A stretch of 64,000 nucleotides of DNA from Microthrixaceae bacterium (GCA_016702505.1 JADJDU010000003.1:256265-320264); one strand, 5' to 3'. Shown: positions 15,913 to 61,805, counted from the first letter of the stretch. Notes: a model not told the origin generated them from the letters alone. Translations and numbers: made by a program.

Positions 15913-15970
15913 AGGAGCTACCCGTGACCGAACCGACTCGAGCGCAAGCGTCGCAGCGATCGACAGACGA

Positions 15971-29282: not shown

Positions 29283-29738
29283 ATGGGTTACGTGATGGTG
29301 CCGGTGCCCGAGGAACACGTCGAGGAAGCGATGGAGGCCGTCCTTCGCATCACGCGCAGCGCTCGACTCACGCCTTGGGATCAGGAATCCATGGATGAGT
29401 TCTGGGCCGGGCTCGACGAGGGGGCCAAGGCCTTGGCTTCGTTGGTTGCCAGGGCAACGCTGGCCAACCGGCAGATCTCCCAGGCATCAGCAGCAGACCG
29501 CATGGAGGTCACCCAACGGGAGATCCTCGGGATCGTGCGAGACGTGAACCACCGAGCCCACGACATCGAAAGGCCCGCGGTCCTGATGGTCCAGGAGGCC
29601 ACCGAGACCCTGGCCAACGGGCGGACCCGGCCGGTTTCCATCGTTTCCACCAACGTGGCGCTGGCCCCCCTGATCCAACAGGCCGAACAGAACGACCTGG
29701 CCGGAGGCACCTCCACAGGGAGCGGGCTTCCGGGGTGA
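29283..29738 (+). CDS. hypothetical small protein, paralog of 49946..50374 (shared N-terminus MG.V.VPVPEEH.EE)
   Basis: 151 aa. Stop overlaps the wzm-wzt start (ATGA). No recognisable domain. Confidence 0.5.
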   Translation: MGYVMVPVPEEHVEEAMEAVLRITRSARLTPWDQESMDEFWAGLDEGAKALASLVARATLANRQISQASAADRMEVTQREILGIVRDVNHRAHDIERPAVLMVQEATETLANGRTRPVSIVSTNVALAPLIQQAEQNDLAGGTSTGSGLPG

Positions 29739-36187: not shown

Positions 36188-39100
36188 ATGTATCCGTTCT
36201 GGGATATCGCTGTCGCGCCAGCGCTCAAGGCCGCCAAATCACGAAGGATCGTGGAGATCGGTGCCCTCCGTGGGGAGACCACGGCGTTCATGCTCGCCGA
36301 CCTCGGAGCCGACACCGAGCTTCACGTGATCGACCCTGTTCCGGTCTTCGATCCGTCTGAGCACGAGGAGCAGTTCCCTGGTCGCTACATCTTCCACCGC
36401 GACCTGAGCCTCAACGTCCTGCCCGATCTCCCAGCGGTCGACGCCGCCCTGATCGACGGTGACCACAACTGGTACACGGTGTTCAACGAGCTGCGGCTGT
36501 TGAGCGAGACCGCCCGCGCCGCCGAGGCCCCACTGCCGCTCCTGGTCCTCCACGACGTCGGGTGGCCCTACGGCAGGCGGGACCTGTACTACGTCCCCGA
36601 GCAGATCCCCGAGGAGTTCCGCCAGCCCTACGCCGCTCAGGGAATGCTCAGGGGCCAATCCGAGCTGGCCGAGCGAGGCGGGCTGAACCCCACCAACTGC
36701 AACGCCACCCACGAAGGTGGGCCCCGCAACGGCGTCATGACCGCGGTCGACGACTTCATCGATGGCTACGACCGGCCGCTCCGACTCGTGTTCCTCCCCA
36801 CCTACTTCGGGCTGGCGATCGTGGTCGAGGAAACGGTGCTAGAGGCGCACCCGGCGCTCAGAGACCATCTCGACTGGCTCGAAGGCAGGGATGGTCAGGC
36901 CGCCTTGGTCGAGATGACCGAGGCCTCCCGGCTCGACACGCTCGTCATGCAGCACAGCGTCTACTTCACCGACAAGGAGCGGAGCGCGGCGGCCGCCGAC
37001 CGCTACCTCGGGCTGCTGGAGGGCGCCCTCCTCAACGAGCACTACATCGAACAGGAGATCCGCATCAGCTACCTGCTGGAGTGCAGCGAGCGCGGCATCA
37101 CCCCTCGACCCGAGGCACTTCGAGACCCAGCCCGCCAGCTCACCGAGGAGCTCCAGCGCCTTCGTCGGGCCAGACACGCCGGCGATACCGTCGACGATGC
37201 CGGGCCTGTGGGTGCCGCGTTCCCCTACACCACCGTCGGGCGCCAGCACCTCCGCCACCTTGTCCAGCTTCTCGACACCATCCATGCCGAAGCGGTGACC
37301 GGAGACCTTGTCGACATAGGCCCAGGACGCGGCGGTACCTCCATCCTTTTCCGGGGATACCTCGAGGCCTACGCCATCGACGTGCCCCGGGTATGGGTGG
37401 TCGACCGGTTCCGAGCTCGTCCAGCGCCATCCGATGATCCTCGGGCGACGTCTGTCGGTCGAAGTGGCGACAAGCCTGTAGAGGCCCAGAGTGCCTGGGA
37501 AGTCGTGGGAGGACCGGGACTGCCGGAACTGCTCGGGGACCTCAACAGCGTTCGCGAAGGTTTCCATTCCTTCGACCTACTCGATGACCAAGTTCGGTTC
37601 GTGGCCGGAGACGACCTCACCGCCCTGGAAGCCGCTCCCATCGAACGGATTGCGTTGCTCCACCTGGGTGAACGGTCGGCTTTGGACGTTGCCGCTGCCC
37701 TTGATCTGCTCTACGACCGTCTGACACTGGGTGCATTCATTGTGGTCGACGACTTTGACGACCCCGACCGCCGGGCTGCGGTGGAAGCGGTCCGGGCCCG
37801 ACATGGGTCCGACGAGGAGATCGTCACCATCGACCACGGCACCGTCATGTGGCGCAAGACCGAGAGGTCCCAGGCCGAGCTCGATGCGGCCGACGGAGCC
37901 TTGCCATCCTCAGACGATCGACCCACCGGCCCCGTGTTGGCCCCAGCACGAGGCTGGTTCCCGACCGACCTAACCGTGGTCGTGGTCTTCTACAACATGA
38001 AGCGCGAGGCAGCCCGGACGTTGCATTCGCTGTCCCGGGCCTACCAGCAAGGTATCGACGACATCACCTACGACGTCGTCGTCGTCGACAACGGCTCGGC
38101 CCCCGACCAGAAGCTCGATCCGGCCTGGGTCCGAAGCTTCGGCCCGGAGTTCCGGTTCATAGACATGGGCAGCGATGCCAAACCGTCGCCCATCCCGGCA
38201 CTTAACCGCGGGATCGCCGAAGGCCACGGCATCAACTACGCCCTCATGATCGACGGTGCCCACGTCCTCACCCCTGGCGTCCTTCGCCACGGCCTGGCCG
38301 GCCTGACCACCTATGCCCCCGCCGTCGTCGCCACCCAGCAGTGGTATGTGGGCCCCGGACAACAGGCCGATCTGGTGGCAGAGGGCTACAACCAGAGTTA
38401 CGAAGACGTCCTCTTCGACAAGATCAACTGGCCCTCAGATGGCTACCGCCTGTTCGACATCGGCCACTTCATCGGCGAGCGAGACTGGTTCGACGGCATG
38501 TGGGAGTCGAACTGCCTGTTTGCTCCCCGCAGCCTCCTCGAACAGGTCGGAGGGTTCGACGAACGGTTCTCTATGCCCGGTGGCGGATACGCCAACCTCG
38601 ACCTCTACGAGCGACTCGGCGCCAGCCCTGACGTCACGGTGGTGACCATGCTCGGTGAGGGGTCGTTCCACCAGGTCCACGGAGGTACGACCACCAATCT
38701 GTCCGGTGACGAGAAGCGCCACAACACCCTGGCCGAGTACTCCCAGCACTACCAGGATGTTCACGGTCGCCCGTTCCGCGGCAACGCCAAACCGGTGCAC
38801 TACGTCGGGTCCATGCCCCGTGAGGCAGCCCGCACAAAGGCCCGCCGTCGGGTTTCGCCCAACATGTTCAGCCTTCATGCGCCCGACCAGGTCGGCGGAG
38901 TACCCGAGAAGGCATCACCGATGCCGCAGGACCTGTGGTCGGAGTTCACCGACGCCTACTGGCACACCCTCAAGTGGCGCCAGACCCATTGGATGGGTCA
39001 GCGATTGTCCAAGCTTCCTGGAGACATGGTGATCATCCAGGAGATCCTCACCAAGGTCCGGCCCGACTGGATCGTCCACACCGGCACCGCCAACGGTGGA

Positions 39101-39583
39101 CTGGACTGGTTCCTGGCCACGATCTGCGACCTGCTCGACCACGGTCAGGTCATCTCCATAGACCGCAAGCTGCACGAAGACCTTCCCCGCCACGATCGCA
39201 TCACCTACATCGAGGGCGAAGCCCACCTTTCCAAGGTGAACAAGCAGGTCACCGACCTGACCGGTCCCGATAGCCATGCCGTGGTCATATTGGGCACCAA
39301 GGCCAGCTCAGCACGGACTTCGGCCGAGTTCCACATCTACGAGGACCTGGTCCCCGAGGGGTCGTACCTGATCGTCGAGGACACGATCGTCGGTGGCCAC
39401 CCGGTGTGGGGCAACTTTGGGGTCGGGCCCTACGAAGCTGTCAAGGGCATCACCGAAACCAGGGGAGACTTCGTATCCGACACATCCCTGGAGAAGTACG
39501 GCCTGACGTTCAACACCACCGGCTACCTCCGGCGGATCAGCAAGGTCCAACACACGGCGCGCCGAAAAGGGCGCAAACGCTGA
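36188..39583 (+). CDS. giant four-domain enzyme: CmcI-like MTase / TylF-like O-MTase / GT2 glycosyltransferase / CmcI-like (rhamnosyl-O-MTase-type) MTase
   Basis: 1131 aa. aa 1-200: IVEIGALRGETT...LIDGDHNWYTV. aa ~340-560: LVDIGPGRGGTSILFRGYLEAY...VWVVDRF. aa ~600-850: TVVVVFYNMKREAARTLHSL...YDVVVVDNGS (GT2). aa ~930-1131: VIIQEILTKVRPDWIVHTGTANGGLDWFLA...VEDT (CmcI family). Confidence 0.85.
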   Translation: MYPFWDIAVAPALKAAKSRRIVEIGALRGETTAFMLADLGADTELHVIDPVPVFDPSEHEEQFPGRYIFHRDLSLNVLPDLPAVDAALIDGDHNWYTVFNELRLLSETARAAEAPLPLLVLHDVGWPYGRRDLYYVPEQIPEEFRQPYAAQGMLRGQSELAERGGLNPTNCNATHEGGPRNGVMTAVDDFIDGYDRPLRLVFLPTYFGLAIVVEETVLEAHPALRDHLDWLEGRDGQAALVEMTEASRLDTLVMQHSVYFTDKERSAAAADRYLGLLEGALLNEHYIEQEIRISYLLECSERGITPRPEALRDPARQLTEELQRLRRARHAGDTVDDAGPVGAAFPYTTVGRQHLRHLVQLLDTIHAEAVTGDLVDIGPGRGGTSILFRGYLEAYAIDVPRVWVVDRFRARPAPSDDPRATSVGRSGDKPVEAQSAWEVVGGPGLPELLGDLNSVREGFHSFDLLDDQVRFVAGDDLTALEAAPIERIALLHLGERSALDVAAALDLLYDRLTLGAFIVVDDFDDPDRRAAVEAVRARHGSDEEIVTIDHGTVMWRKTERSQAELDAADGALPSSDDRPTGPVLAPARGWFPTDLTVVVVFYNMKREAARTLHSLSRAYQQGIDDITYDVVVVDNGSAPDQKLDPAWVRSFGPEFRFIDMGSDAKPSPIPALNRGIAEGHGINYALMIDGAHVLTPGVLRHGLAGLTTYAPAVVATQQWYVGPGQQADLVAEGYNQSYEDVLFDKINWPSDGYRLFDIGHFIGERDWFDGMWESNCLFAPRSLLEQVGGFDERFSMPGGGYANLDLYERLGASPDVTVVTMLGEGSFHQVHGGTTTNLSGDEKRHNTLAEYSQHYQDVHGRPFRGNAKPVHYVGSMPREAARTKARRRVSPNMFSLHAPDQVGGVPEKASPMPQDLWSEFTDAYWHTLKWRQTHWMGQRLSKLPGDMVIIQEILTKVRPDWIVHTGTANGGLDWFLATICDLLDHGQVISIDRKLHEDLPRHDRITYIEGEAHLSKVNKQVTDLTGPDSHAVVILGTKASSARTSAEFHIYEDLVPEGSYLIVEDTIVGGHPVWGNFGVGPYEAVKGITETRGDFVSDTSLEKYGLTFNTTGYLRRISKVQHTARRKGRKR

Positions 39584-39610
39584 CTACCCCGAGCTAACCC
39601 CCACCTTTGC

Positions 39611-40675
39611 TCAGAAGAGGATCGGTAGCTGCTCGGCCGGGTAGTGCGATGGCGAGAAGAACCAGTGCTCCAGCGCGTAGCGGTTGGTGTCCATCCCCGG
39701 AGAGATGCCGGTGCGGTGGAGCAGGAGATCGTCGAAGAGAAGAGCGTCACCAGCGTTGAAGACCGGCCGGATCACCGGTGCATCGATTGCCAACTCGTCG
39801 GCCAAACCGTCGCCCACCGCCCAGTCGAACAACGCCCCGTGAGAACCGGTCTCGACCAACTCGTCGAGGCGGCGGGGAATCCACTCCAGGCCAGGGGCCG
39901 TGGAGTCTCCCCCGCAGTCGGTGAGCGTCACCCAGACGTTGCAGCTACGGATCCCACGGCTCATGAACGCCCCGTCTTGGTGCCAGCCCGTTCCCGTTGT
40001 GTAGGGGACATGACGCAGAGTGCCCTTCTTGAGGGACAGGGCCGGGCGTTCCCCGAAGTACTCGGTGAGAACGGCCTGGAGGTTGGCACCCTCGAAGAAA
40101 TCGAGCAGGGTCTTGAGCGCCCGCGGTGAATCGCCGGTGTACATGGAGCCCTGGGGTACCAAGAAGTGACGGCCACCCATCACGTCGTACTGGCCGTAGG
40201 CCTCACTGGGCTCGAAGAACGAGCACCACACCTCGGAGCCGTCTGAGCTGGTGCCCTCCACCCGTGCCTTGAACGCCGCCAAGGACTTGTCGATCACGCC
40301 CTTGAACTGCTCGACCTGTTCGGCGTCGAGCAACCCGCGCACGAGGAGACAGCCGTGGTGGCGCACCGCAGATGCCAGCTTGTCGGTGGTCAGTTCCGAG
40401 GCATCGATCTCGGGTGGTTCTACGCATCCTTCGAAAAGGTCCGGAACCGAGGGGGGCCATGACTCCCGACCACCGCTGCGGGCCACCTGGCTGAAAGCTC
40501 GATGACGAAGCTCGACCATTCGAACCTCGAGGGCATCGTCGGGCCTGACCTTCAACGCGTTCGCATAGTGCTGCACCGCAGACTGAAGGTCTCCTTCCTT
40601 CTCTGCGGCTCGACCGGCCTCAAGGGCCGCATCGGCGTCTGCGTGGTCCGTGGCAAGGGTTCCCGGAGGCGTCAT
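39611..40675 (-). CDS. PhyH-superfamily Fe(II)/2-oxoglutarate-dependent oxygenase with N-terminal TPR-like segment
   Basis: GTGWHQDGAF (HxD), a second His in LLLHRTGISPGMDTNRYALE with the conserved Arg. Paralog of 41308..42303. Confidence 0.65.
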   Translation of the reverse strand: MTPPGTLATDHADADAALEAGRAAEKEGDLQSAVQHYANALKVRPDDALEVRMVELRHRAFSQVARSGGRESWPPSVPDLFEGCVEPPEIDASELTTDKLASAVRHHGCLLVRGLLDAEQVEQFKGVIDKSLAAFKARVEGTSSDGSEVWCSFFEPSEAYGQYDVMGGRHFLVPQGSMYTGDSPRALKTLLDFFEGANLQAVLTEYFGERPALSLKKGTLRHVPYTTGTGWHQDGAFMSRGIRSCNVWVTLTDCGGDSTAPGLEWIPRRLDELVETGSHGALFDWAVGDGLADELAIDAPVIRPVFNAGDALLFDDLLLHRTGISPGMDTNRYALEHWFFSPSHYPAEQLPILF

Positions 40676-40684
40676 GGCCGGAAG

Positions 40685-41311
40685 CTACTTCGACAACGGC
40701 CGGGCGGGAACCCCCACAACGGTCGTTTTTGGAGCGACATCTGTCACTACGACGGCGTTGGCGCCGATCTGGGCGTCCTCACCGATCTTGACCGGTCCGA
40801 TCACCTTGGCACCCGTGCCGATGTGAGCCCGGGCCCCGACGACAGCACCGTTCACATTGCCCTCCTTGAGGCCGATCGTGACCCACGGACGCACCTCCAC
40901 GTGCGGCCCGATCTCTACGATCCCGTCGATCACCACCGCCCCATGGGGAAGGTAGAGCCCAGGAGCGACTACCACCGGATCACCGATGCACACCTGGCCG
41001 ATCATCATGGCCAACCGATGGAGTATCGACGGCAGAATCGGGACCTCGTGAACCTGGAGCGTCGCCTTCAGCCGATAGCAGAGCAAAGCGGCGAAAGCGT
41101 CGCTGCGCCAACAAAGCCTGATCACCTGGAGGACTAGGTCAGTCCGGGACCGAAACTCGTAACGCTCACCCCTGAACAGGCAGAAGATGCGCGCGTCCTC
41201 GCGCACCGCCCGTCTGAACGATGGGAAACGACGCCGGAACTTGCGCATCAGATCCCGACGTTGCGCCTTGGTTGGCCCCGGGGTCGTTGCCTTCACCCTC
41301 CGCCCACTCAT
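40685..41311 (-). CDS. hexapeptide-repeat O-acyltransferase (CysE/WcaB/NodL family)
   Basis: SATase_N-like helical region followed by left-handed beta-helix hexapeptide repeats (IGDPVVVAPGLYLPHGAVVIDG...IGANAVVVTDVAPKTTVVGVPARP). Confidence 0.75.
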   Translation of the reverse strand: MSGRRVKATTPGPTKAQRRDLMRKFRRRFPSFRRAVREDARIFCLFRGERYEFRSRTDLVLQVIRLCWRSDAFAALLCYRLKATLQVHEVPILPSILHRLAMMIGQVCIGDPVVVAPGLYLPHGAVVIDGIVEIGPHVEVRPWVTIGLKEGNVNGAVVGARAHIGTGAKVIGPVKIGEDAQIGANAVVVTDVAPKTTVVGVPARPLSK

Positions 41312-42303
41312 ACGAGGATCGGGACGTAGCGCTCAGGGAAGCACGAAGGCGCGAAGAACCATGACTCCAGGGCGTACCGATCGGCAGTGAACTCCCGCTC
41401 CGACGAAGACCGGTGAACGAAGAAGTCATCGAAGAAGATCGCATCGCCAGGCGCAAACGACGGGGTCTCGGGCGGAGCGTCCACGGCCACCTCGTCGACG
41501 AGACCTTGGCCTATCGAGTTGGGGAAGATCGATCCCTTGGTGCCGGTCTCCAGTATCTCGTTCACCCTCTTGGGCACGATGTCCAAGCCCGGAGCGGGAT
41601 GGTCTCCACCGCAGTGCGACAACGACAGCCACAGGTCGATGGCCCTGATCCCCGCACCGATGAAGGCCCCATCTTGGTGCCAGGTGGGGGCCGATTCCCG
41701 CAGGCGCCGCAGAACGCACTTGTTGTAGGAGAGAGCCGGACGCTCCCCCAGATAGCCGGTCACGGTGTCGATAACGCCTTTGGCCCGAAAGATCTCCAGG
41801 ACCTCCAACATCATCTCTGGCGCATCGGCAACCAACATCCCTCCGACCTCGCGCACCCAGGCTCGTTCGGTGGGGACGCTGGCGGCATCTACCTGGAAGG
41901 GACGGTAGGACCCGTTGCCCTCTGGACCTCCAGCGCTGGGATCGTCGTCTCGGTCTCCCAGCACATCGAGTGCCCGGGCCTTCACCGCCGAGACCTCCTC
42001 GGGGGACAACAAGCCGCGGACTATCACGCCACCGTGGTGGAGGATGCTCCCTCCCACCACGTCAACCGAGATCTGATCAGGAATGATCTCGGGAATCCCG
42101 GTTACCTCAGGGAAGGGATCGGATAGGTCCGGCGGCCAAGATGCCCGCAGCGACGGACCTCGTTCCCGGCCGAAGGCATCATGACGAAGCCTCACGATCT
42201 GGCGGGCAAGGTCAGAGTCGGGGTTGTGGCGGTACTCCTCGGTGAGGATGTCGACCGCCGCCATGACCCGACCCCCACCGTCGGAAACCAACGAACCTGT
42301 CAT
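41308..42303 (-). CDS. PhyH-superfamily Fe(II)/2OG oxygenase, paralog of 39611..40675
   Basis: TWHQDGAF; FFVHRSSSEREFTADRYALESWFF. Confidence 0.65.
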   Translation of the reverse strand: MTGSLVSDGGGRVMAAVDILTEEYRHNPDSDLARQIVRLRHDAFGRERGPSLRASWPPDLSDPFPEVTGIPEIIPDQISVDVVGGSILHHGGVIVRGLLSPEEVSAVKARALDVLGDRDDDPSAGGPEGNGSYRPFQVDAASVPTERAWVREVGGMLVADAPEMMLEVLEIFRAKGVIDTVTGYLGERPALSYNKCVLRRLRESAPTWHQDGAFIGAGIRAIDLWLSLSHCGGDHPAPGLDIVPKRVNEILETGTKGSIFPNSIGQGLVDEVAVDAPPETPSFAPGDAIFFDDFFVHRSSSEREFTADRYALESWFFAPSCFPERYVPILV

Positions 42304-42938
42304 GCGGATGTCCTCCGTGTCGATGCACCCTGGGGCGCCTGATCTTCCGGCGCTATCACCGGGGTCGCCTGGGGTTCCTTCTTGCTGTTTGCGCCCACCG
42401 GACGGGCCGGTACGCCAGCCACCCGACTGTGCGCCGCCACGTCGCCGGTGACCACCGCGTTGGCGCCTATTCGGGTGTGGGCTCCAACCGATGCCGGTCC
42501 GTTGATGACCGCGCCAGTACCAACCCTCACATCGGTCCCGATGGTCACCTCTCCTCCAGAGGAGTCAATGGTGGACCACGGGAACATCACAACGCCGTCA
42601 GCCAGGCGAACCGGTCCGCGTAGGTCCACCTGACCATGGGCCAGGTACAGCCCTGGCCCCACCACCGCTTCGGGCCCGATGTGAACCTGGGCCACGACGG
42701 CGGCGGCCACCTTCATGAGGCGAGGAACCAACGGAACGCCATGCTGGCGGGCAGAGGCCCCAATTCGGTAACAGACCTGGGCCAGGTAGGCATCGCTTTC
42801 GAGAGCGAGCCTCACCATCTGCCCGGCGGTCACCCAACGGTTGCCCATGCGGTGGTACTCGCCCCTGAACCGGGCCGCGGCTCTGGCATCCGCGACCAAG
42901 GCCGAAACGAGCGGCGGCGATTCAGAGTTGGTGGGCAC
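42300..42938 (-). CDS. hexapeptide-repeat O-acyltransferase (CysE/WcaB family), paralog of 40685..41311
   Basis: Hexapeptide repeats ...IGANAVVTGDVAAHSRVAGVPARP. A 4-nt overlap couples it to the downstream oxygenase. Confidence 0.75.
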   Translation of the reverse strand: MPTNSESPPLVSALVADARAAARFRGEYHRMGNRWVTAGQMVRLALESDAYLAQVCYRIGASARQHGVPLVPRLMKVAAAVVAQVHIGPEAVVGPGLYLAHGQVDLRGPVRLADGVVMFPWSTIDSSGGEVTIGTDVRVGTGAVINGPASVGAHTRIGANAVVTGDVAAHSRVAGVPARPVGANSKKEPQATPVIAPEDQAPQGASTRRTSA

Positions 42939-43079
42939 GATGGTGTGATCTACCGGCGGGCTGACGGACGGGGACCATCCCGGGACCAGGGAGGTGGGGG
43001 GATGGTAGCGGGAGCACGACGGTTGATCCGCGTGACATCGGGCCCTTCTGGTCGGGTCCTTTTGACCTACCGCCCGAGC

Positions 43080-43922
43080 TCAACCCAACGGCTTTCGCCA
43101 GTACGCCCCGGTCCAATCCACCGGGTGGATCTCGGCCTCTATCGAATGCTTCTTCCGATAGTCGTGAACCGCCTCCTGGCAGGCAGGAATGCAGCCGTAG
43201 TCGTCGATGATGACGAACCCGCCGGGTGAGACCCGCGGCTCGAGGTTGACCAAGGCGTCCATGGTCGACTCGTAGAGATCTCCGTCGAGCCTAAGGACAG
43301 CGACATCACCTATGGGAGCGGTGGGCAGGGACTCGGAGAACCACCCCTCCACGAACCTGACCTGGTCGTCGAGCAGGCCATAGCGGGCGAAGTTCGCCTT
43401 CACCTGTTCGACCGATACCGCCAACCCCAGGTCCAGAATCGCCTTGGCATCGGGGTTGGAGACCTGCATGGATGCATCAGCCGGGTAACGGTCCGGGTCT
43501 GGTTCGGGCAGGCCTTGGAACGAATCGCACACCCATACGGTTCTGTCGGTGACACCGAGGGTGGCGAGTACCGCCTTCATGAGAATGACCGTGCCCCCAC
43601 GCCACACCCCGGTTTCGACGAGGTCACCTCGAACCCCCTCGGCGACAACTCGCCTCACCAGAGCCTCGACGTTGTCCAACCGGGCCCGGCTCACCATCGT
43701 CTCAGCGCTTCCCGGTATCCAGTCCTGGCCGATCGTCGATCGATCATCAGCGCTCATCCGTCGCACCAGCCGCCACCCGTTGGCGTGAAGAACATCCCAG
43801 ACATCGTTGGGGGGGCCAAGGACCTCACTTGGCTGCCAGTGCAAGACATCGAGGACCTCATCGTCGGGGAAGAGGTCTCGGGTCAGGCAACCCTTCAGTA
43901 GGTCCAGGTATCGCTGGGCCAT
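43080..43922 (-). CDS. TylF/MycF-family class I SAM-dependent sugar O-methyltransferase
   Basis: MAQRYLDLLKGCLTRDL...TMVSRARLDNVEALVRRVV...GDLVETGVWRGGT...VWVCDSFQGLPEPD...VLRLDGDLYEST...GFVIIDDYGCIPACQEAV closely matches TylF/MycF. Confidence 0.8.
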   Translation of the reverse strand: MAQRYLDLLKGCLTRDLFPDDEVLDVLHWQPSEVLGPPNDVWDVLHANGWRLVRRMSADDRSTIGQDWIPGSAETMVSRARLDNVEALVRRVVAEGVRGDLVETGVWRGGTVILMKAVLATLGVTDRTVWVCDSFQGLPEPDPDRYPADASMQVSNPDAKAILDLGLAVSVEQVKANFARYGLLDDQVRFVEGWFSESLPTAPIGDVAVLRLDGDLYESTMDALVNLEPRVSPGGFVIIDDYGCIPACQEAVHDYRKKHSIEAEIHPVDWTGAYWRKPLG

Positions 43923-44027
43923 CGCGTTGTCGCCGGTTGGAGGATCAATGGTGGGGCTGGGCACGGCGGGCAGGATAGATCGCTCAGAGCACACCGATCG
44001 GTTCGTTGTGGCCCGGCACACCTGGGC

Positions 44028-45172
44028 TCACGGGGTGTCGCCGTCGCCACCTTCGCCACCCTGGTTCGCCATGAGGTGAGCGATCAGCTTCTGACGCACC
44101 TCCTCATTGGTCTCAGCCAACTGGGCGAACAGGATCTTCTCGTGCTCCTCGATCGAGACGGTGGTGAGGGTCCAGCCCTCCCGGCCGTGAGCAGCCCCGG
44201 GACCACCCCGATACGGCACCGCCGGAGCATCATCGACCACGAAATCCCACTCGGCATAAAAGTCCTTACGAGTCCAAGCCAACGTCGAAGGCGTCTCACC
44301 CGGACGCTGAGTCCGCAACGGCCCCACGAACACCTGACCCAACCCAACCCCAGAACCAGCACCCATCAAACCAGGCGGCGGACGATCGAAATACGTCCGC
44401 CAATACCGCTCCGAGAAGAACAACGCGCAGTAATCCAACCGGTGGTACTCATCGATGAACATGTACCCGTCATCGACCAGATACGGCCACAAACCAATCA
44501 CACACTCATGGAAACTGGACTGATAATCCACATCCACATACGCACACACGATCGGCTCAGAGTGCGAACCCATCGTGTCCGAGAACCACCCCTTACGGAA
44601 CTCACACACCTCCACCGCCCCAAACCGCGTGACGTTGGAACGCACCTCCTCCAACTCACCCTTGAACGCCCCCTCACCCATCTCACTGGCCCAATGATCG
44701 CCCTCCACCGCCGGCGGCAACCCTTCGAAGCTGTCATAGACGATCAAGCTCCGACCCGCCGCCTGAGCGATCAACGACAAGTTCGCAGTAGTACCACCCT
44801 TCCAACACCCCGCCTCCACCATCACACCTCAACCGAGCGCGGCACCGACAACACCTTCGCCGCAATGGCCAGATGCCCCCGATAGCTCAACCCGGTCTGG
44901 ATCTTGGTCGTGTTCCGACGCATGCGTCGCGCCAACCCGAACCGCTTACGCCACGTCAACCCGTGCGAAGGATCGATCGGAGCCCCATAGAACAAGAACA
45001 ACGTCAAATGAAACCACGACGCCGCCTCATAGGCGTCCGCAACCCGCCTCACCAACCGCGTACGCCGACCTTTCGAAAAACGCTGCGAAACCGCGGCCCG
45101 AACACGCCGACGAAGTCCAAACCCCTTAGATGACACGAGGCGCGACCGTAGTGCCCCCCTGCCACCGCGCAC
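44028..45172 (-). CDS. TylF-family O-methyltransferase, apparently split by a frameshift at ~44822 (C-terminal part 44028..44825; possible N-terminal part 44822..45172)
   Basis: C-part: VEAGCWKGGTTANLSL...IVYDSFEGLPP...DVDYQSSFHECV. The upstream ORF ends ...LAIAAKVLSVPRSVEV* with its stop overlapping the C-part start codon (ATGA). The N-part match to TylF is weak. Confidence 0.5.
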
Positions 45173-45191
45173 GGCGGCTGACCGCCAACCG

Positions 45192-47144: not shown

Positions 47145-47156
47145 GGTTCGGAGTTG

Positions 47157-49829
47157 TCAGTTGGCCATCCCGTGCGCGGCCAGCGTCCGCTCAACGGGTG
47201 AGTGCAGCTCCCAGTGGAGGTACTCGTCAATGTCGGTATCGAAACCCAGTCCGATATCGCAGAGCCGGTGAGGATCCTCAACCGTGAAGGAGGCAGGACC
47301 ATAGGACTCCAGCGGAGGGACGTGGTCGGCCCAGTCTGTCCTGTGCCCGGAATCTTTGGCCTTCAACACGTCGCGGTACCAGGCTCCGACATCGTGACCC
47401 ACCTCGATCGTGTAGGGGAACTTCCGACCCTGGGCGGGGAGGACGGCATGTTGGGCCGCCAAGACAGCATCGAGCCCTGAACCAGGCGGCACGCCGAGTC
47501 GCTCGACCGCGAAGCGCCCCATCTCGTCGATGAAGAGGCGCCAGCTCACGGGAGGCACCATGGTCACCGGCACCACCCGGGTAGCGGTGGTGATCGTGGG
47601 GTAGGCCTCCGGCTCGTTCTGGGTCAGCTCTCGCAACGCCTCGATCAGGTCTGCTTCTCGCAGGCCAACGGTATGGCGCAGATACCTGGCCGTGAGGCGC
47701 AACACCGCGAAGTTCTCCATCAGGCGGAACACCGCTCGGAGCTGGAGCATCACGTCGTAATCCTCCCGGGTGAAGCTGGAGGACGAGACCACCAGCGCAC
47801 GTCCGAGTCCTGCTGACCCCCGAGACGGGATCGCGGGCGACGGCGATCGGTCGATTCGCTCGGTCCGGATCTGGTTCTCAGTCCTGTAGGACGGTTCGTT
47901 CATCGGGCTGTTGATCAGCATCTCGGTCTGGAAGACCTTTGCGTTGATCTCACGATCTATGCACTGCTGGAAGTCCTCTCGCACCGAGGCGGTCGTAGCT
48001 CCGGGTAGACCGATCATGAGATCAACCATCAGCGGAAGCTGGGCCTGGCGGAACTCACGGGCGAGATCGTCGTACTTCTCGACCTTGATGTTCTTCCGCC
48101 GAATGGTGGCCAGCGTGTCGTCGTCCATCGACTGCAACGAGAGAAGCCCTTCGGTGACAACGCCAGCTCCGGCCATCACCTGAACGATCTTCTGAAGGTA
48201 CTTGACCGTGTTCTTGGCGTAGTTGGTGACGAAGCTTCCGGGATAGCCCTTGGTCGTATACAGCTCCGCGACCTTCTCCGCGATCTGGACGTCCTGGTCG
48301 AAGATGCCGAAGTTGGCGTCGCAGAGGAAGATCTTCTCGACCTTGTTGTCTGCGCACCACTCGAGCTCCGCGAAGATCCGCTCCAGGTCGAACTTCCTGA
48401 TCCTCGAGGCAGTGCTCGATCCCCAGTCGCAGTAGGTGCAGCTGTAGGGACACCCACGGTTTGTCTCGATCATGGCCGTATTGATCACACCGCCACCGAA
48501 CGGCTCGTACAGGCCTGTCAGATACGGCGATGGCACCACGTTGATGTCGGTCAGCCGGTCGCGGTCCGCCGTCCGCACGACGCCATTGGGGCCTCGGTAA
48601 CTCAGGCCCGGCACCGAATCGAGGACCGAGAGGTCTCGCTCCTCGTCATCTCTAATGGGTGCCAACGCGGCCAACAGCTCGGCAAAGGTCACCTCGCCTT
48701 CGCCATGGACCACCACATCGATGAACGGGTTGGCAGCGAAGTAGGCCTCGACATCGCCCGGGTACTTGGGGGAGTCGGGTCCGCCATGGATCGTGATCGC
48801 CCTCGAGCTGCGATCCTTGATGATCTTGGAGCTCTCCAGGTTGACGCCGTGGGACCACACGTAGTTGCTGAACATGAAGACCGAGCCGTCGTCTATCAGC
48901 GACTCAAGCACGTCCGGGTACATGAAGGTGGCCGGGAGGAAGTCGTAGCTCTCCAAGAGCTGACCCTCGTTCCATGCCGATGCATATGACACCAACATCC
49001 CGAGTGACAACGGCATGATCAGCTGGTCATAGATCGGGATGACCGCAGTTCGGCGAACACCGGTCTCCGCCTGCTGGGCGTAGCGCTGCTCGATTCGATC
49101 TTCGAAATCAGATCGCAGGTGGGCCTGGGTTTCGATCGCCTTGGCGAACAGGTGACTAGCAATGAACTCCTGGCGAGAGGAGGTCTGCATCGACTCGGAT
49201 CGTCCGACGATGCGCGATGCCAGGAGGATCCCGGCCGTTTCCATGAAACGGTCCTCAGTCAGCGCCGCCCGGCCCGCCTGCTCGACGTGGGCCGCAAAGG
49301 CCGCCTCGACCGATTGCGAGGTGCTCAAGTTCACGGCAGCGAGCACCTGAGCTGCGCTCAACACCGCCCGGACACCTCCGTCGTGGTCGAGCGCGTAGTA
49401 GCTGCCATCAGCCACCGTCAAGAGGATCGGGCTCCCGATGTCGAGATTGTCAGACATCGCTACTGCTTCGGCTGCCCCCTGTCCCTCCGACGAACCGCGG
49501 GACGGCACCACCGCTCTGTTGGAGCCCTCGACCAACTTGCGCTCCCGCAAGTAGAAGAGCGTGACGTGAAGGTCGAATGCGGGCACGCTCCAGTCAGCCG
49601 ATATCTCCTCGATCAGGGGAGAAACGTCTCGAACCTCGGGCCCCGACAACTCAGCCATCAAGGCTAGATCGGCACCGGCGATCACAATCTCGGGAAGCAT
49701 GTCGATCTTGGGAATGCACACTCCTTCGCGACGGAGCATGACGGTGGCGAAACGGCTGAGCCGCGCGCCGTCTGCGGATGATGCTTCAGAGTGTTGGCTC
49801 TCACGCGTAGTTGAGATGTCGGTCATCAA
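47157..49829 (-). CDS. B12-binding radical SAM enzyme (class B rSAM) with ~250-aa N-terminal and ~250-aa C-terminal extensions
   Basis: Cobalamin-binding region (ITIHGGPDSPKYPGDV...VVVHGEGEVTF) followed by IETNRGCPYSCTYCDWG (CxxxCxxC). Confidence 0.85.
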   Translation of the reverse strand: MMTDISTTRESQHSEASSADGARLSRFATVMLRREGVCIPKIDMLPEIVIAGADLALMAELSGPEVRDVSPLIEEISADWSVPAFDLHVTLFYLRERKLVEGSNRAVVPSRGSSEGQGAAEAVAMSDNLDIGSPILLTVADGSYYALDHDGGVRAVLSAAQVLAAVNLSTSQSVEAAFAAHVEQAGRAALTEDRFMETAGILLASRIVGRSESMQTSSRQEFIASHLFAKAIETQAHLRSDFEDRIEQRYAQQAETGVRRTAVIPIYDQLIMPLSLGMLVSYASAWNEGQLLESYDFLPATFMYPDVLESLIDDGSVFMFSNYVWSHGVNLESSKIIKDRSSRAITIHGGPDSPKYPGDVEAYFAANPFIDVVVHGEGEVTFAELLAALAPIRDDEERDLSVLDSVPGLSYRGPNGVVRTADRDRLTDINVVPSPYLTGLYEPFGGGVINTAMIETNRGCPYSCTYCDWGSSTASRIRKFDLERIFAELEWCADNKVEKIFLCDANFGIFDQDVQIAEKVAELYTTKGYPGSFVTNYAKNTVKYLQKIVQVMAGAGVVTEGLLSLQSMDDDTLATIRRKNIKVEKYDDLAREFRQAQLPLMVDLMIGLPGATTASVREDFQQCIDREINAKVFQTEMLINSPMNEPSYRTENQIRTERIDRSPSPAIPSRGSAGLGRALVVSSSSFTREDYDVMLQLRAVFRLMENFAVLRLTARYLRHTVGLREADLIEALRELTQNEPEAYPTITTATRVVPVTMVPPVSWRLFIDEMGRFAVERLGVPPGSGLDAVLAAQHAVLPAQGRKFPYTIEVGHDVGAWYRDVLKAKDSGHRTDWADHVPPLESYGPASFTVEDPHRLCDIGLGFDTDIDEYLHWELHSPVERTLAAHGMAN

Positions 49830-49945
49830 GTTCCCCTACCAGGCACACCTGGAACCTGCGCCCGTTGGCGCTGTGGACAGGATCCCACCCTATCGCCGGG
49901 TCGGGCCCGATGCCGATGGGCCGGGGCCCAAAGGTCGCAGGTGGG

Positions 49946-50374
49946 TCAGTCCCCTTCAGCCACGTCAGGGACGTGGGCGAGTATTCGCCGGGCCAGCGAG
50001 GGGATGATGTAGATCAGGTTCTCGACTTGATGCCCGTCGCCGCCGTCGGAGTTCACCTTTGCTTCCATCACGAGGCAAGGAGCGAGATCTCGGATCTGAA
50101 AGGCACCGTTGATGTTCAGCGCCAGCCCGTAGACCTCACCCACGCTCGAGGCCGTGACCGCCGCTATGGAATCGCAGGAGAGCAACTCGCGGCGCGCCGA
50201 TGCCCGACAGATGACGTCGAAGACCGTCCGCTCGTCATCGGTCAAGCTCAGGCGAGTCTCCACCACCGAATCGATCTCGTGGTCGGACATCCTCGTGGAG
50301 ATGAGGTGTCGGATCATCTGCCGACTGAACTCCTCCGCGTGTTCCTCGGGGACCGGAATCAGAACGTCACCCAC
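49946..50374 (-). CDS. hypothetical small protein, paralog of 29283..29738
   Basis: MGDVLIPVPEEHAEEF... versus MGYVMVPVPEEHVEEA.... Sits ~120 nt upstream of the rSAM gene on the same strand. Confidence 0.5.
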   Translation of the reverse strand: MGDVLIPVPEEHAEEFSRQMIRHLISTRMSDHEIDSVVETRLSLTDDERTVFDVICRASARRELLSCDSIAAVTASSVGEVYGLALNINGAFQIRDLAPCLVMEAKVNSDGGDGHQVENLIYIIPSLARRILAHVPDVAEGD

Positions 50375-50478
50375 CGGTCAGGATCCCTTGGGGGCGGCCG
50401 AAGTCATGCTCCCATCCTATTAGGCACCTGAGCGATAGGTCCGGTAGTCGTCGCTACCAGGTTGATCAGACCGGGGGA

Positions 50479-51402
50479 TCAGGGGCGGCGTTCGATCGCC
50501 AGTCGGGCGCAGTGGTCGAGCATCTCCAACGCCGGGTCCGGCATTCGTCCGAGGTGAATCGGGTCAGCCGTCAGCTCCCGGAATGGGGCGCCACGAAGCG
50601 TCTGGTACTGGGCGTCCATGTCGGCCCAGGTGAACCTTCGGGACGTAGCCGCACCGCCATGGATCTGGTGGAACGTGCCCTCGGCCAGGAGCTGGACCAG
50701 TGTCGTGTCATCCCGCTGGCAGGCCCGCAGGTAGAGGTCGTGGTTCACCAGCCCGCCTCCGGGTAGGTCGAAGGCTTCGTCATAACCCCCGAGGTCAGTC
50801 CACAGATCGCGACCCATGAAGAGCGAACTGCTTTCGCTCTTGGCGCCGAACCAACCCCGATGCGACGAGCCCGCCAGGGTGGAGCAACCGAACAGCCGAT
50901 AACCGTCCTTCGTCCACTCCACCTGCTCCAACAACGCGTCCTCGACGGCCTGGTCATAGCCAGCTTCGGCCGCCTTCATGTGGGTGGTGGGTCCAAGGTG
51001 GTATGCGGGAGCGGTCACCACCGCACGGTCTGCCACTCGGTCACCGCGAATGGCCATTGCCAGCAACCCAGGAGATGCCAATCGAGCACCATCCATCACC
51101 ACCCCGACCAGCGACCCGCGGGCCGCCTCGATACCGATGTTGGCGGCACGTGCCGGCGATGCCGGGGCCGGGTCGAGCCTGATCAACCTGGCATCGAGCA
51201 CCGAGTCTGCGACGATCCGATCCAGCGGCTCGGGGGAGCCGTTGTCGACGACGACCACCTCGTAGTCGTCAGGATCGACCTCTCGTTGGTATCGGGGAGA
51301 CAGGCTGTAGAGGGTCCGTGGCAGTTCGCGACCCATTCCGTAGGCCACCACCACGACGGTCAGGGCCGGGCGTCGTTCCTCGCCCCCGGCGCGAAGCGTC
51401 AC
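50479..51402 (-). CDS. GT2 glycosyltransferase, stand-alone paralog of the GT2 domain of the giant enzymes
   Basis: TVVVVAYGMGRELPRTLYSLS...YEVVVVDNGS and W.KDGYRLFG...GGYDEAFDLPGGGLVNHDLY parallel aa ~600-850 of 36188..39583. Confidence 0.8.
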   Translation of the reverse strand: MTLRAGGEERRPALTVVVVAYGMGRELPRTLYSLSPRYQREVDPDDYEVVVVDNGSPEPLDRIVADSVLDARLIRLDPAPASPARAANIGIEAARGSLVGVVMDGARLASPGLLAMAIRGDRVADRAVVTAPAYHLGPTTHMKAAEAGYDQAVEDALLEQVEWTKDGYRLFGCSTLAGSSHRGWFGAKSESSSLFMGRDLWTDLGGYDEAFDLPGGGLVNHDLYLRACQRDDTTLVQLLAEGTFHQIHGGAATSRRFTWADMDAQYQTLRGAPFRELTADPIHLGRMPDPALEMLDHCARLAIERRP

Positions 51403-51415
51403 CGATTCCGGACCT

Positions 51416-54400
51416 TCATCGCACCCGGCGGAGGTACCCGCCGGGGTTGAAGGAAAGGTGGTACTTCTCCATCTTGGGATCGGGGGCGAAGTTCCCGTTG
51501 CGAGCCAGGATCTGCTTCACGGCCTCAGCCGGGCCAGGACCGAACCCAGCCCACACGGGGTGACCGTTTACCACCGTGTCAGCGATCACAACGTAAGAAC
51601 CGACTGGCACGAGCGGCGCGTACCGCTCGAACTCCTCAGATGTCGTGTGACGGTCCACCAGGGACCCGAGCACGACCAAAGCCGTCCCCCCGGCCACCCG
51701 TCGATGCACCTCCTCGGCCACATCTCGGTGATGCGGGCGACCGGTCAGGTGCTCGAGACGGGGGTGTGTCGGTCGACCATCGCCATCGGATGGGTCGACC
51801 GACAAGACCTGCCCGTGTCCGATCAGTTCGCAGATCGAGGCCAACAGGATCGAACGACCGCCGTCCTTGGACCCGGTCTCGATGATCCAATCGGGTCGCA
51901 CCGTCGAGATGATCTCCTGATAGGCGACGAGGTCGGTGGGAGGCGTCCGGGTCGACTGACCCAACCAAGTCGTGTCCTCCCAAGGCATCGCGGCGTAAAC
52001 CGACTCGATGAACGCCTTGCCCAACTCCTCGGGCATGGGCCGGGGAGCCATCGGAGGACCGTCCACCCCACCGGCTGCGGCAGCAGCGTTGAACATCTCG
52101 GCCGACATCCGTCGAGGCCTGGTACGTCGGGCGGGCTGAGAGCGGATCGCCCCTACGTAGTGAACCGGCTTGCCCGGTCCGTGGAAGGCCCTACCCCTGA
52201 GATCCGCGTACTGCTGGCTGTAGTCGAAGACCTTGGTCCGACGCTCGGCGGCATCGACTCGGTTGGTGGTGTCGCCCCCGTGCAACTGGTGGAACGATCC
52301 CTCACCCAAGATGGTGGCCACAGTGATGTCGGGACCGCCCGCCAAGCGCTCGTACAAGTCGAGGTTGGCGAAACCAGCACCCGGAAGGTCGAAGCTCTCG
52401 TCGAACCCTCCGACCTGCTCCAGCGTCTCTCGCGCCACGAACAGGCAGTTGCTCTCCCACAGCCCGTCCAGCCAGTCTCGGTCACCGATGAAGTGACTGA
52501 TCTCGAACAGGCGGTAGCCGTTGGTGGGCCAGGCGATCTGCTCGAACAGCCGATCCTCGTATTCACGGTCGTAGCCGGCAGCCATGGCATCGCCCTGCTG
52601 ACCGGGACCGACGTACCACTGTTGGGTGGCCACGATCGCCGGTGCATAGGTGGCGAGTCCAGCCAGTCCCCAGCGGAGGACTCCCGGAGTCACCACGTGG
52701 GCTCCATCGATCATCAGCGCGAAGTTGCGACCTCGTCCCGCACGGATTCCCGCGTTGAGAGCGTTGACCGGAGACGGATGGATCGAGTCGAGCGACAGCA
52801 GGCGGAACTCGGGGCCGAACTCGGACACCAGGTCGGCACTCAGGGCCTGGCCGGGCCCGGATCCGTTGTCGATCACCAACACCTCATAGGTGATGGCGTC
52901 CACGCCGTCTTGGTACGACCTCGACAACGAGTGGAGCGTCCGACGAGCCTCACGAGCCATGTTGTGGAAGACCACTACGACGGTCAGATCTACCTGGTCA
53001 CCCGGCGCGGGAGGAGCCAACGGCGCGCGAGGTAGATCGGCCTGGGGGGCGATGTCCAGAGCGCTCTCGAATGGCTCACCCCCGACCTTGCGCCACACCA
53101 TCAAGCCGTGATCCCGGTGATCACACGGGCCGGTAAGACCTCGGCGCGTCCGGAACTCCTCCACCGAACGGCGGGTCTCGGACTCCTCGCTGGCATCGAC
53201 GACCACGAACCCACCCACCGGGATCCGGCGGTAGAGCGCATCGAGCACCAACCCGGCATCCGCCCCGGTGTCGTGCCCCAGCCTCAACATGGCGACCTGT
53301 TCGATGTCGGCATCGGCCAACGACGCCTCGAGCTCACCCGACAGGAACTTCACCCGAGCGTCGAGCAACCCGAAGCGGGTGAATCCATCTCGGATCAGGT
53401 TCAGATCGGCGCGGAAGTCGGCCACGCCCCGCTCGGTCCATCGGGCTGACTTGAGCCCTTCGGGAGCGGCTCGGAAGCGGTCCACCACCCACACCTTCTG
53501 GTCCTTCAGGTCGTAGGCGTCGAGCCAGGCCCGAAAGAAGATGCCAGCACCTCCGCGTCCTACCCCGACGTCGACCAGATCGCCGGGTACGGCCTCTGCC
53601 TTGACGGTCTCGAGGCGACCGTGAAGATCATCGAGGCGGGCTCGTCCCATGTCGGTGTAGGGCACGAAGGAACGTCCGCGACCATCGTCGGGGCCGGCAG
53701 GCCCGAGCCGCTCGCGGGCCAGGCGAGGCCAGACCTCGGGGTCTTGGCGCACCGGGTCCCGCAGTATCCGGGCGTCGGGGGCCCGCCCGGCTTCGATCCG
53801 GGCAGCGAGGTGCGCCAGTCGGGCTTCGTCTTCCAGGTAGTGCTCGTTCAGCAGCGCCGCCTTGACCGTGCCGAGGTAGCGGGCCACCAGCCGTAGCTCT
53901 CGGGCAAGGGCCGGGAAGTGAGCGTTGTGCTGGAACACCATGGCCTGGAGACGGAGACGTTCCCCCAACTCCAAGAGCAGATTGCGTCCTTCCACACCCT
54001 CGAGGCGGTCGAGCACCGAAGCCAGATCCGGCTGTCGGGCCAGCCGCTCCTCGGCCACCACGATGGCCAGCCCGAAGTAGACGGGCAACACCACCAGCCG
54101 CACTGGCTCGTCGTAGCCAGCTATCCAATCCTCCAACCCGGTCATGACACCGTTGCGGGGTCCGCCCTCGTGCGTGGCGTTGAAGTGATTCGGGTTGAGT
54201 CCCGATGCACCCTTTGCCAGCTCGTTGCGATCGAGGTGGACTCCCTTTTGGGCATACGGCTGACGGAACTCGGCTGGCACCGTGTCCGGCGAGTAGTAGA
54301 GGTCGCGACGGCCGTAGGGCCAGCCGACATCATGGAGGATCATGATGGGTAGCTCGGCCCCCAAAGACCGGTTCCGCTCCGCCAGGAGCCGACACTCGTT

Positions 54401-54696
54401 GTACACCGTGTACCAGTTGTGATCGCCGTCGATCAGCGCTGCATCCATGGCCGGCAGTTCACCGAGGACATCGACGCTCAGGGCTCGGTGGAACACGTAC
54501 TGACCGGCGAACTCCCGTTCATGCTCGGCGGGATCAAACGCCGGCTTCGGGTCGATCACGTGTAGCTCGGTCTCAGGCCCGAGCGTCTCGATGATCTGGC
54601 GGGTGTTCTCTCCCCGGAGGGCACCGATCTCGACCAGGCGTTTGACTCCGCCCGCCTCTAGCACGGGAGCGATGACGTCGTTCCAGAAGGGGAACA
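51416..54696 (-). CDS. giant four-domain MTase / MTase / GT2 / MTase enzyme, paralog of 36188..39583
   Basis: Track ORF 51416..55099 carries a spurious 134-aa N-extension. The real start MFPFWNDVIAPVLEAGGVKRLVEIGALRGENT... is about 70% identical to the paralog over the first 200 aa, with the same domain order through the CmcI-like C-terminus (VAYQEIISTVRPDWIIETGSKDGG). Confidence 0.85.
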
Positions 54697-54845
54697 TCGG
54701 CGGGGCGCGATTCCTTGACCGGGTTTGGGACGGGCGGACCCTAGCGCGGCGGGGAACGGGCGGGGCCGACGGCCAAAGAGCCGCACGGGTCACAGCTCCG
54801 GCCATTACCGGAGCCTTTCTGGTCGGGCGTGGTATCGATTTGGGG

Positions 54846-60034: not shown

Positions 60035-60083
60035 CCACCGACCAACGCGTCACGCCCCTCCCCCCACAAAGGCGAAACAACAG

Positions 60084-61172: not shown

Positions 61173-61185
61173 AAGAGCGACCTTC

Positions 61186-61764: not shown

Positions 61765-61805
61765 CCCGCCCCCGGTTCCCCAGCGTCCACTAAGTTCCGC
61801 ACCCC

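Follow-up and report, generated by a model that had tools for sequence, protein, structure and literature searches.

We analyzed a 64,000-nucleotide stretch of DNA from a Microthrixaceae bacterium (GCA_016702505.1, JADJDU010000003.1:256265-320264; "the window"), which has a G+C content of about 65%. Within a glycan locus, it carries two large genes whose products each combine methyltransferase (MT) folds with a family 2 glycosyltransferase (GT2). The first, giant A, is an ATG-initiated open reading frame (ORF) at 36188..39583 on the + strand, encoding 1131 aa. Its translation has a 100% match in the protein database (P0001) and orthologues that are 72-84% identical. The second, giant B, is on the - strand at 51416..54697 and encodes 1093 aa. 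The minus-strand ORF is in fact longer (51416..55099), but its alignment to giant A and to all relatives begins only at Met135 (MFPFW), and we therefore assign the gene to 51416..54697. An earlier first-pass annotation of the window had located giant A exactly, and had the end of giant B one base short (54696). The two proteins align in BLASTP over 1122 columns with 51% identity, 65% positives and E = 0. They are full-length paralogues in a locus with the gene content of sugar-polymer synthesis, as that annotation had proposed. Their first 200 aa are 63.5% identical, somewhat below the ~70% that had been estimated.

A widespread four-domain family

Pfam finds the same domain order in both giants: a Methyltransf_24-type MT, a TylF-like domain, a GT2 domain and a CmcI-like domain. 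In giant A, the N-terminal MT domain (N-MT) covers aa 1-232 (36188..36883), with Methyltransf_24 matching aa 22-123 at 50 bits. It is followed by the TylF-like domain at aa 271-557 (36998..37858; 135 bits, above the gathering score), the GT2 domain, of GT-A type, at aa 593-880 (37964..38827; Glycos_transf_2 at aa 596-726) and the CmcI-like domain at aa 913-1118 (38924..39541; RMNT_CmcI at aa 930-1117, 132 bits against a cut-off of 23.2). The corresponding domains of giant B, all on the - strand and supported by Pfam and the alignment, are at 54008..54697 (again Methyltransf_24), 53087..53884, 52133..52984 (Glycos_transf_2, 29.6 bits) and 51422..51982 (RMNT_CmcI, 126.8 bits). The order MT/MT/GT2/MT had been proposed previously and holds in both proteins; the N-terminal domain, previously described as CmcI-like, is assigned to Methyltransf_24 instead. 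The CmcI-like domain misses the cut-off of the NCBIfam equivalog model RhmsylMtase (108 bits versus 400).

A full-length AlphaFold (AF2) model of giant A, made with 24 relatives in the alignment, has a predicted local distance difference test score (pLDDT) of 74.5 and a predicted template modelling score (pTM) of 0.55. Foldseek comparison of this model with the PDB yielded NovP, MycF and SpnH, CmcI, and the GT2 enzymes K4CP, PmHS2 and RmlT. Because these matches and those of Pfam cover all four folds, including the TylF-like and GT2 folds of the middle regions, we regard all four as real. When the N-terminal domain was modelled alone (pLDDT 89.4), its matches were TrmR/YrrM (14.5), COMT (14.3), SpnH (13.2) and CmcI (11.2), so that its nearest folds are cation-dependent O-methyltransferases. 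In sequence searches of the PDB, neither the N-terminal domain nor the GT2 domain had a significant match (best E 0.49 and 0.32, respectively). In the full-length model, a helix of ~48 residues (aa 234-281) directly follows the N-MT and is itself followed by the TylF lid helices; the helix is also present in stand-alone homologues. Giant A contains no transmembrane segment, its sole hydrophobic stretch (aa 200-218) corresponding to two beta-strands of the N-MT.

It might be supposed that such long ORFs are artefacts of assembly or gene calling that join separate genes. Shorter two-domain relatives are indeed known (GT2+CmcI of ~520 aa, and TylF+GT2), and at least one gene in the window is frameshifted. 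However, the four-domain architecture occurs in at least 78 independent loci from species-representative genomes, nearly all of which match query residues 1 to ~1117, and these include closed long-read chromosomes of metagenome-assembled genomes (MAGs; OY969725.1, OZ244202.1 and OY970387.1). A search of 5.8 billion proteins gave 1136 matches at E < 1e-10, and the top 120 matches to giant A are all 1026-1154 aa long and at least 52% identical to it. Linker lengths are conserved in the family, and both paralogues in the window have the same domain order. The giants are not the assembly chimeras that the first-pass annotation had considered, and the probability that we assign to any such artefact is negligible.

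The host lineages of the 78 loci are almost all Acidimicrobiia MAGs, including Microthrixaceae, Iamiaceae, Acidimicrobiaceae and Aquihabitans, with a few Solirubrobacterales. Where the top 120 matches have named sources, these are MAGs of Acidimicrobiales or Acidimicrobiia, with one labelled only Actinomycetota, and the product names of top matches are generic ("cephalosporin hydroxylase", "class I SAM-dependent methyltransferase", "glycosyltransferase"). A count of 595 relatives rests on peptide patterns of the N-terminal domain and may include stand-alone N-MT genes, and we therefore keep our claim to the 78 loci. The four-domain family is compact, since clustering at 50% leaves only about eight full-length representatives.

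In 12 of the 78 loci, two or three giants are found within 23 kb. A neighbour-joining tree places giants A and B in separate deep clades, the former with L001, L002, L003 and L040, and the latter with L044, L034, L028, L035, L036, L050, L009 and L060. In the closest genome, DAIMFV01, each giant has a single orthologue (L001 for A, L044 for B). Because the clades are deep and both members persist in this relative, we infer that the duplication is old and that the pair has been maintained. Gene order is conserved around A in L002 and around B in L044. Our searches of protein databases and the literature found no characterised protein with this four-domain architecture, in agreement with the earlier impression that it matches no characterised system. 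Literature searches that combined TylF, CmcI and glycosyltransferase, or "cephalosporin hydroxylase" and O-antigen, also found nothing.

Catalytic residues of the four domains

We investigated motif conservation in an alignment of 122 full-length members, taking the positions of motifs on strands from the predicted models. Mean identity to giant A is 68% for both the N-MT and the GT2 domain, 50% for the CmcI-like domain and 41% for the TylF-like domain. Within the N-MT, motif I (E23-x-G25...G29), the acid D49 at the end of beta2, D90-G-D92-H93-N94 at the end of beta4 and H122-D123 at the end of beta5 are all approximately invariant. The lid motifs WPYGRRDLYY and EGGxRNGVMT are kept, and no catalytic residue has been lost. 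The domain thus combines the features by which we recognise a cation-dependent class I O-methyltransferase, namely a Rossmann MT fold, motif I, a beta2 acid, and acidic or His residues at the ends of beta4 and beta5.

The TylF-like domain has an approximately invariant glycine-rich loop for S-adenosylmethionine (SAM), G372-D-x-x-x-x-G378-x-x-R381-G-G383, and an approximately invariant beta2 acid, D406. In MycF, Asp189 is reportedly a metal ligand and Asp191 the base, and Asp216 and Asp217 are likewise said to have roles (we fixed the MycF numbering by means of the M56A/E139A variant chains). The equivalent of Asp189 is Gly (G494) in 111 of the 122 members. The position of Asp191 is variable (G/D/S/E/T, with R496 in giant A), and the eight members with Asp at 494 all still lack an equivalent of Asp191. 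In giant B, the residues at the DGD position read L-G-H-D. The Asp216 equivalent is kept as D/E521, and that of Asp217 is variable.

A similar loss is found in the CmcI-like domain, which keeps its SAM loop and, in 93 of 122 members, the beta2 Asp. As criterion for the Mg site of CmcI, we used the ligands D160, E186 and D187 together with a D-x-x-H motif; the PDB titles "cmcI-D160 Mg" and "CmcI-N160" point to residue 160. This site is not preserved, as D159-D160-A-H162 of CmcI corresponds to G1036-[S/T]1037-x-x (G1036-T1037-K-A in giant A). The equivalent of E186, E1064, is present in 111 of 122 members and is Ala in giant B, and D1065 is variable; giant A keeps E1064-D1065. An internal control is provided by CmcI-type domains that are attached to the same N-MT without this GT2 (P0309, P0300, P0312 and P0305), all of which keep L-D-S-D-H...V-E-D-T. 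Where CmcI-like domains are appended to this GT2, 105 of 109 lack Asp at the CmcI D159 position, and the E-D pair is lost as well in distant X-GT2-CmcI proteins. In hhalign comparisons, the TylF-like and CmcI-like profiles matched with 92% probability, with the Gly positions of both decayed domains in register, while the N-domain profile aligned to either of them at motif I only (probability about 1%).

The GT2 domain has invariant N635-G-S, D689-G-A-H692, E773 and D791 (in GGFDE), and an invariant C-terminal motif, E824-G-S-F-H828-Q-x-H831-G-G-x-T-T-N, that includes H828 and H831. D689-G-A-H692 occupies the DxD position, of which only the first Asp is present; D791 is a candidate base. On reading the GT2 sequence, we did not see QxxRW; QQW-YVGPGQQ is present.

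These observations bear on the model of the first-pass annotation, in which sugar transfer is coupled to three active O-methyltransferases within a single protein that makes a multiply methylated residue (e.g., 2,3,4-tri-O-methyl-deoxyhexose) or, as a processive synthase, a polymethylated rhamnan. There are three MT folds whose SAM-binding loops are retained, and the extra TylF-type MT genes and radical-SAM methylase of the locus (described below) indicate heavy methylation. Tri-O-methylated terminal deoxyhexoses are found in the Rhizobium etli O antigen. In the phenolic glycolipid of M. tuberculosis, such a residue is made by three separate MTs (PMC3594219). However, a complete catalytic MT set is found across the 122 members only in the N-MT. 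In the other two of the three MT domains, the metal and base residues of MycF/TylF and CmcI are gone family-wide, the loss of the E-D pair extends to the distant X-GT2-CmcI relatives, and both domains evolve faster than the N-MT and GT2. A synthase-type processive enzyme would moreover be expected to have transmembrane segments, which giant A does not, and QxxRW was not seen in its GT2. We consider this model quite improbable. The TylF-like and CmcI-like domains descend from sugar O-methyltransferases and by appearance can still bind SAM. Most likely, however, they have no catalytic function and serve in scaffolding or in binding the acceptor or SAM; at best they are non-canonical MTs.

Stand-alone homologues and neighbouring genes

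Copies of individual domains occur between the giants. Directly downstream of giant B is a stand-alone GT2 of the same subfamily (50479..51402, - strand), which had been noted previously and which shares 41% identity with the embedded GT2 across 286 aa. Both of the stand-alone TylF-type genes that had been annotated also exist. The first (43080..44021, - strand) ends at 44021 rather than 43922 and encodes a canonical TylF-type O-methyltransferase, with a Pfam score of 315 bits and an intact LRLDGDL...IIDDY. The second (44028..45172, - strand) is split by a 1-nt frameshift near 44822-44825, with the break at …PRSVEV* / MVEAGCWKGG. The closest relative (L044) has an unbroken ORF for this gene, and in L008 both halves share a frame. 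The gene in the window is either a pseudogene or an assembly error.

The suggestion that domains have been shuffled is upheld by relatives with other combinations: GT2+CmcI, TylF+GT2, X+GT2+CmcI (~780 aa), N-MT+CmcI+GT2 (P0309) and N-MT+GT2+GT1-like (P0359). In the latter two fusions, the N-MT is again at the N-terminus. Four Pseudomonadota loci (L079-L082) encode a stand-alone N-MT homologue of ~283 aa that is 39-45% identical over ~255 residues and keeps all motifs, among them DGDHNWYTV and WPYGRRDLYY. In each, this gene immediately adjoins one to three stand-alone, full-domain GT2 homologues (39-47% identical) that carry MIDGAH and GEGSFHQVHGGTTTN. Because the stand-alone homologues adjoin in these four loci, and because N-MT/GT fusions of other kinds exist, we propose that the N-MT and this GT2 form the functional core. 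We view the TylF-like and CmcI-like domains as additions that are particular to the actinobacterial fusion. The proteobacterial operons, which have only generic annotation, also contain sulfotransferase genes, a PhyH-family gene and an Acyl_transf_3 gene. A synthase-dependent pathway was ruled out for them, as their 533-aa GT2 has no transmembrane helices. The PhyH gene of one (L080) was rejected as an orthologue of the PhyH-like genes in the window (E 0.055), so that only co-occurrence at the superfamily level applies.

We read the content of the glycan locus from ~26 to 63 kb of the window. Upstream of giant A, a gene at 29735..31378 (+ strand) encodes an exporter in which an ABC-2 membrane domain (residues 46-246) is fused to a Wzt/TagH-type ATPase (residues 321-536). 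These two parts take up the whole 547 aa, and there is no C-terminal carbohydrate-binding module. The exporter gene is followed by genes for an SPFH/Band-7 protein (31400..32602, + strand) and a 918-aa Sulfotransfer_3-GT1 fusion (32702..35458, + strand); an SPFH homologue is also found within ~1 kb of the homologue of this single-polypeptide exporter in L042 and L050. Between the giants are two PhyH-like Fe(II)/2-oxoglutarate oxygenase genes on the - strand, at 39611..40675 (with one N-terminal TPR motif) and 41308..42303. The two proteins are 38% identical and keep HxD and the WHQDGAF...HR motif. A hexapeptide acetyltransferase gene (40685..41311, - strand) separates them, and all three are conserved as neighbours of giants; another acetyltransferase gene of this type is at 42300-42938. 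Beyond the TylF-type genes are a gene for a 650-aa GDSL-like protein (45192-47144) and one for an 890-aa B12-binding radical-SAM protein of the KedN5-type C-methyltransferase family (47157..49829, - strand). The latter suggests C-methylated sugars; it has an N-terminal extension of ~300 aa and is present in up to three tandem copies in the related locus L011.

Divergent from giant B is a gene for a polytopic membrane protein (54725..56578, + strand; start probably ~60 codons downstream) that has at least five hydrophobic segments and no Pfam or NCBIfam match, and that could be a GT-C-like transferase or ligase. Next are genes for a GT1 (56602-57873) and a WbpM/PseB-like dehydratase (57986-60034), and then the dTDP-deoxyhexose genes rmlA (long form), rmlC and rmlB (59784..62807, + strand). 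By NCBIfam, rmlA scores 451 bits against a cut-off of 320 and rmlB 400 against 365, and rmlC is present. The rmlA ORF (59784..61172, + strand) overlaps the WbpM-like gene by 250 nt; since the rmlA_long match begins at residue 102, the true start is probably near 60087. Several further GT1/GT4 genes lie within ~26-63 kb. One at the left edge of the locus (25768..27001, + strand) looks broken into two or three overlapping ORFs, with a Pfam match on 26294-27001.

Some of these neighbours recur. PhyH-like genes are the commonest, being near giants in ~40 of the 78 loci, and hexapeptide acetyltransferases are near giants in 29. In at least 17 loci, a giant has a stand-alone GT2 of the same subfamily no more than 4 kb away, in most cases directly abutting it, and B-clade giants repeatedly adjoin the same GT1 and rml genes in several genomes. 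Two small paralogous proteins of the window, at 29283..29738 (+ strand, 151 aa) and 49946..50374 (- strand, 142 aa), are 29% identical, begin with VPVPEEH and are not recognised by Pfam. The first has homologues in 11 related loci, several of which have this gene near that for the ABC exporter. The glycan locus is preceded, at a distance of a few kb, by genes for an integrase of phage type (13733-15325) and a TrwC relaxase/helicase of 1210 aa (15683-19315), the latter followed by a stretch of low G+C at 20000-22000 (0.56 versus ~0.65). Together, these features resemble an integrative or conjugative element.

Oxygenases of the PhyH family take part in the sugar chemistry of orthosomycins. With TylF-type MTs, PhyH-like oxygenases, a B12 radical-SAM methylase, acyltransferases and an ABC exporter together, the locus could conceivably make a secreted, heavily methylated oligosaccharide natural product resembling an orthosomycin, with the giants as tailoring enzymes. 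Yet the exporter is of the Wzm/Wzt-TagGH polysaccharide type, the locus encodes a WbpM-like membrane dehydratase and a polytopic membrane protein, and no polyketide synthase or non-ribosomal peptide synthetase is among the genes annotated between ~26 and 63 kb. Furthermore, the presence of the family in at least 78 species-representative Acidimicrobiia genomes better fits a core envelope polymer. We regard a natural product as highly improbable.

Proposed role in glycan assembly and comparison with known systems

Our preferred reading, which we hold tentatively and would put just short of an even chance, is that the giants are "add a sugar, O-methylate it" modules in the ABC-transporter-dependent assembly of a decorated, deoxyhexose-rich envelope glycan, with the GT2 and N-MT as the working core. 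They would be soluble or peripheral proteins, a membrane topology that we infer for the pathway. The inverting GT-A/GT2 domain would add one sugar to a lipid-linked chain, and the N-terminal cation-dependent O-methyltransferase would methylate either the added sugar or one next to it. The TylF-like and CmcI-like domains would serve as scaffold or bind acceptor or SAM without catalysis. The two paralogues and the stand-alone GT2 may supply different linkages or residues of one glycan. This glycan, bearing O-methyl, probably O-acetyl and possibly sulfate and C-methyl decorations, would then be exported by the Wzm/Wzt-type ABC transporter. The donor is probably a 6-deoxy-L-hexose, e.g., dTDP-L-rhamnose, in a beta linkage. 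Three observations favour such a donor, although none is decisive: dTDP-deoxyhexose genes are adjacent, the nearest MT structures (SpnH, MycF, NovP and CalS11) are of enzymes that act on 6-deoxyhexoses, and the DxD motif is atypical, as it is in WrtF, the top match among GT structures. Rhamnose itself is plausible, given that rmlA and rmlB score above their cut-offs and rmlC is present.

It is important to set several observations against this proposal. Giant A barely passes the Pfam cut-off for GT2 (23.5 bits versus 23.3), and the pTM of its model leaves the packing of domains against one another uncertain. Neither rmlD nor a priming phosphoglycosyltransferase was identified in the window. 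Finally, glycine-rich SAM loops and the beta2 acid persist in both decayed domains, apparently under selection, and for this reason these domains might carry out metal-independent methyl transfer.

The site of methylation could also differ from the one that we prefer. In proteins such as WsaE, Klebsiella O7 ORF6 and WbdD, terminator and polymerase functions are combined, and by analogy the N-MT of the giants would cap the non-reducing end, the helix would be a spacer and the GT2 the polymerase. WsaE and O7 ORF6 share the layout of an N-terminal MT, a helical segment and one or more C-terminal GT modules (PMC2943079, PMC11231755), and the locus has a Wzm/Wzt-type exporter. The N-MT is also N-terminal in its other fusions (P0309 and P0359), and the ~48-residue helix that follows it is found even in stand-alone homologues. 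In addition, the proteobacterial operons contain fewer MT genes (one or two) than GT2 genes (three or four), from which it appears that methylation is not needed at every step. However, the exporter has no carbohydrate-binding module that could read a cap, the predicted helix is much shorter than the coiled-coil rulers of WbdD and WbbB (PMC11231755), and two or three MT-intact paralogues per locus would be unexpected for a single terminator. We consider a terminator role possible, if rather unlikely; capping and in-chain methylation both stand.

A more speculative reading is that the decayed domains are no relics but "readers" of SAM or methylated sugars, which make GT2 activity depend on the supply of methyl donor or on how far the nascent chain is methylated. 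This checkpoint would replace both the carbohydrate-binding module of Wzt and the coiled-coil ruler. The product would be a polymethylated deoxyhexose polysaccharide, forming a hydrophobic surface layer typical of Acidimicrobiia. We view this reading as distinctly unlikely to be correct in full.

To our knowledge, Acidimicrobiia inhabit many environments and few of them have been cultured, and our literature searches on their envelope glycans found nothing. The family is a marker of glycan loci in Acidimicrobiia, being present in at least 78 genomes at the species level and frequently as two or three copies, and it offers a handle on a surface polymer that is probably methylated, acetylated and deoxyhexose-rich. 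For enzymology, it provides a natural fusion that would couple glycosyl transfer to O-methylation, and two MT folds that have lost catalytic residues yet appear to be under selection beside a GT2. It also adds an arrangement from outside Proteobacteria and Firmicutes to those known for the modules of ABC-transporter-dependent glycan assembly.

Single polypeptides that carry both MT and GT modules are already known in the Wzm/Wzt pathway, from WsaE, O7 ORF6, WbdD and WbbB. What is new is the set of domains, the two decayed MT folds that flank the GT2, the setting in Acidimicrobiia and a divergent GT2 subfamily without a close solved structure. WsaE, from the S-layer glycan system of Geobacillus stearothermophilus NRS 2004/3a, has an N-terminal O-methyltransferase and two rhamnosyltransferase domains and acts on a rhamnose polymer (PMC2943079). 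Like the giants, it is a soluble polypeptide of a Wzm/Wzt pathway in which an N-terminal O-methyltransferase precedes GT modules, and its cluster has rml genes. Compared by description, it has one MT and two rhamnosyltransferase domains, whereas the giants have one GT2 flanked by two MT folds that lack catalytic residues.

O7 ORF6 of Klebsiella pneumoniae consists of an MT, a kinase, a carbohydrate-binding module, a coiled coil and two GT2 domains, and acts on a rhamnose-containing O antigen (PMC11231755). It, WbdD and WbbB resemble the giants as multi-module terminator/polymerase proteins of ABC-transporter-dependent glycan assembly. The giants, however, have no kinase and, in the position of the long coiled-coil ruler, a much shorter predicted helix, their exporter has no cap-reading module, and their MT domains are from other families (Methyltransf_24, TylF and CmcI). 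The giants do not resemble membrane-embedded processive GT2 synthases such as BcsA, HAS and NodC, since they have no transmembrane channel helices and QxxRW was not seen on reading the sequence.

Individual domains can also be compared with characterised enzymes. MycF, TylF, NovP and SpnH are free-standing, whereas the TylF-like domain is embedded and has Gly and a variable residue in place of Asp189 and Asp191. In CmcI and rhamnosyl O-methyltransferases (PF04989, Rv2959c type), the D159-D160-A-H162 motif (D-S-D-H in canonical relatives) differs from the G-[S/T]-x-x of the giants, and in giant B the equivalent of E186 is missing too. For the giants' GT2, WrtF is the best structural match, at 19% identity. 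WrtF is a GT2 fucosyltransferase of the Rhizobium tropici O antigen that uses a beta-linked GDP-L-fucose donor and has G-A-D in place of DxD, a degenerate motif in an enzyme that is nevertheless active (PMC12595478). The giants differ from it in having D-G-A-H and the invariant C-terminal EGSFHQxHGGxTTN. A parallel to the N-MT/GT2 pairing is in the operons of marine Gammaproteobacteria (L079-L082), where the homologues of the two domains are likewise adjacent and accompanied by sulfotransferase, PhyH and acyltransferase genes. These operons are uncharacterised and so offer no function to transfer, and they differ from the giants in that the genes are unfused and have no TylF-like or CmcI-like domains attached.

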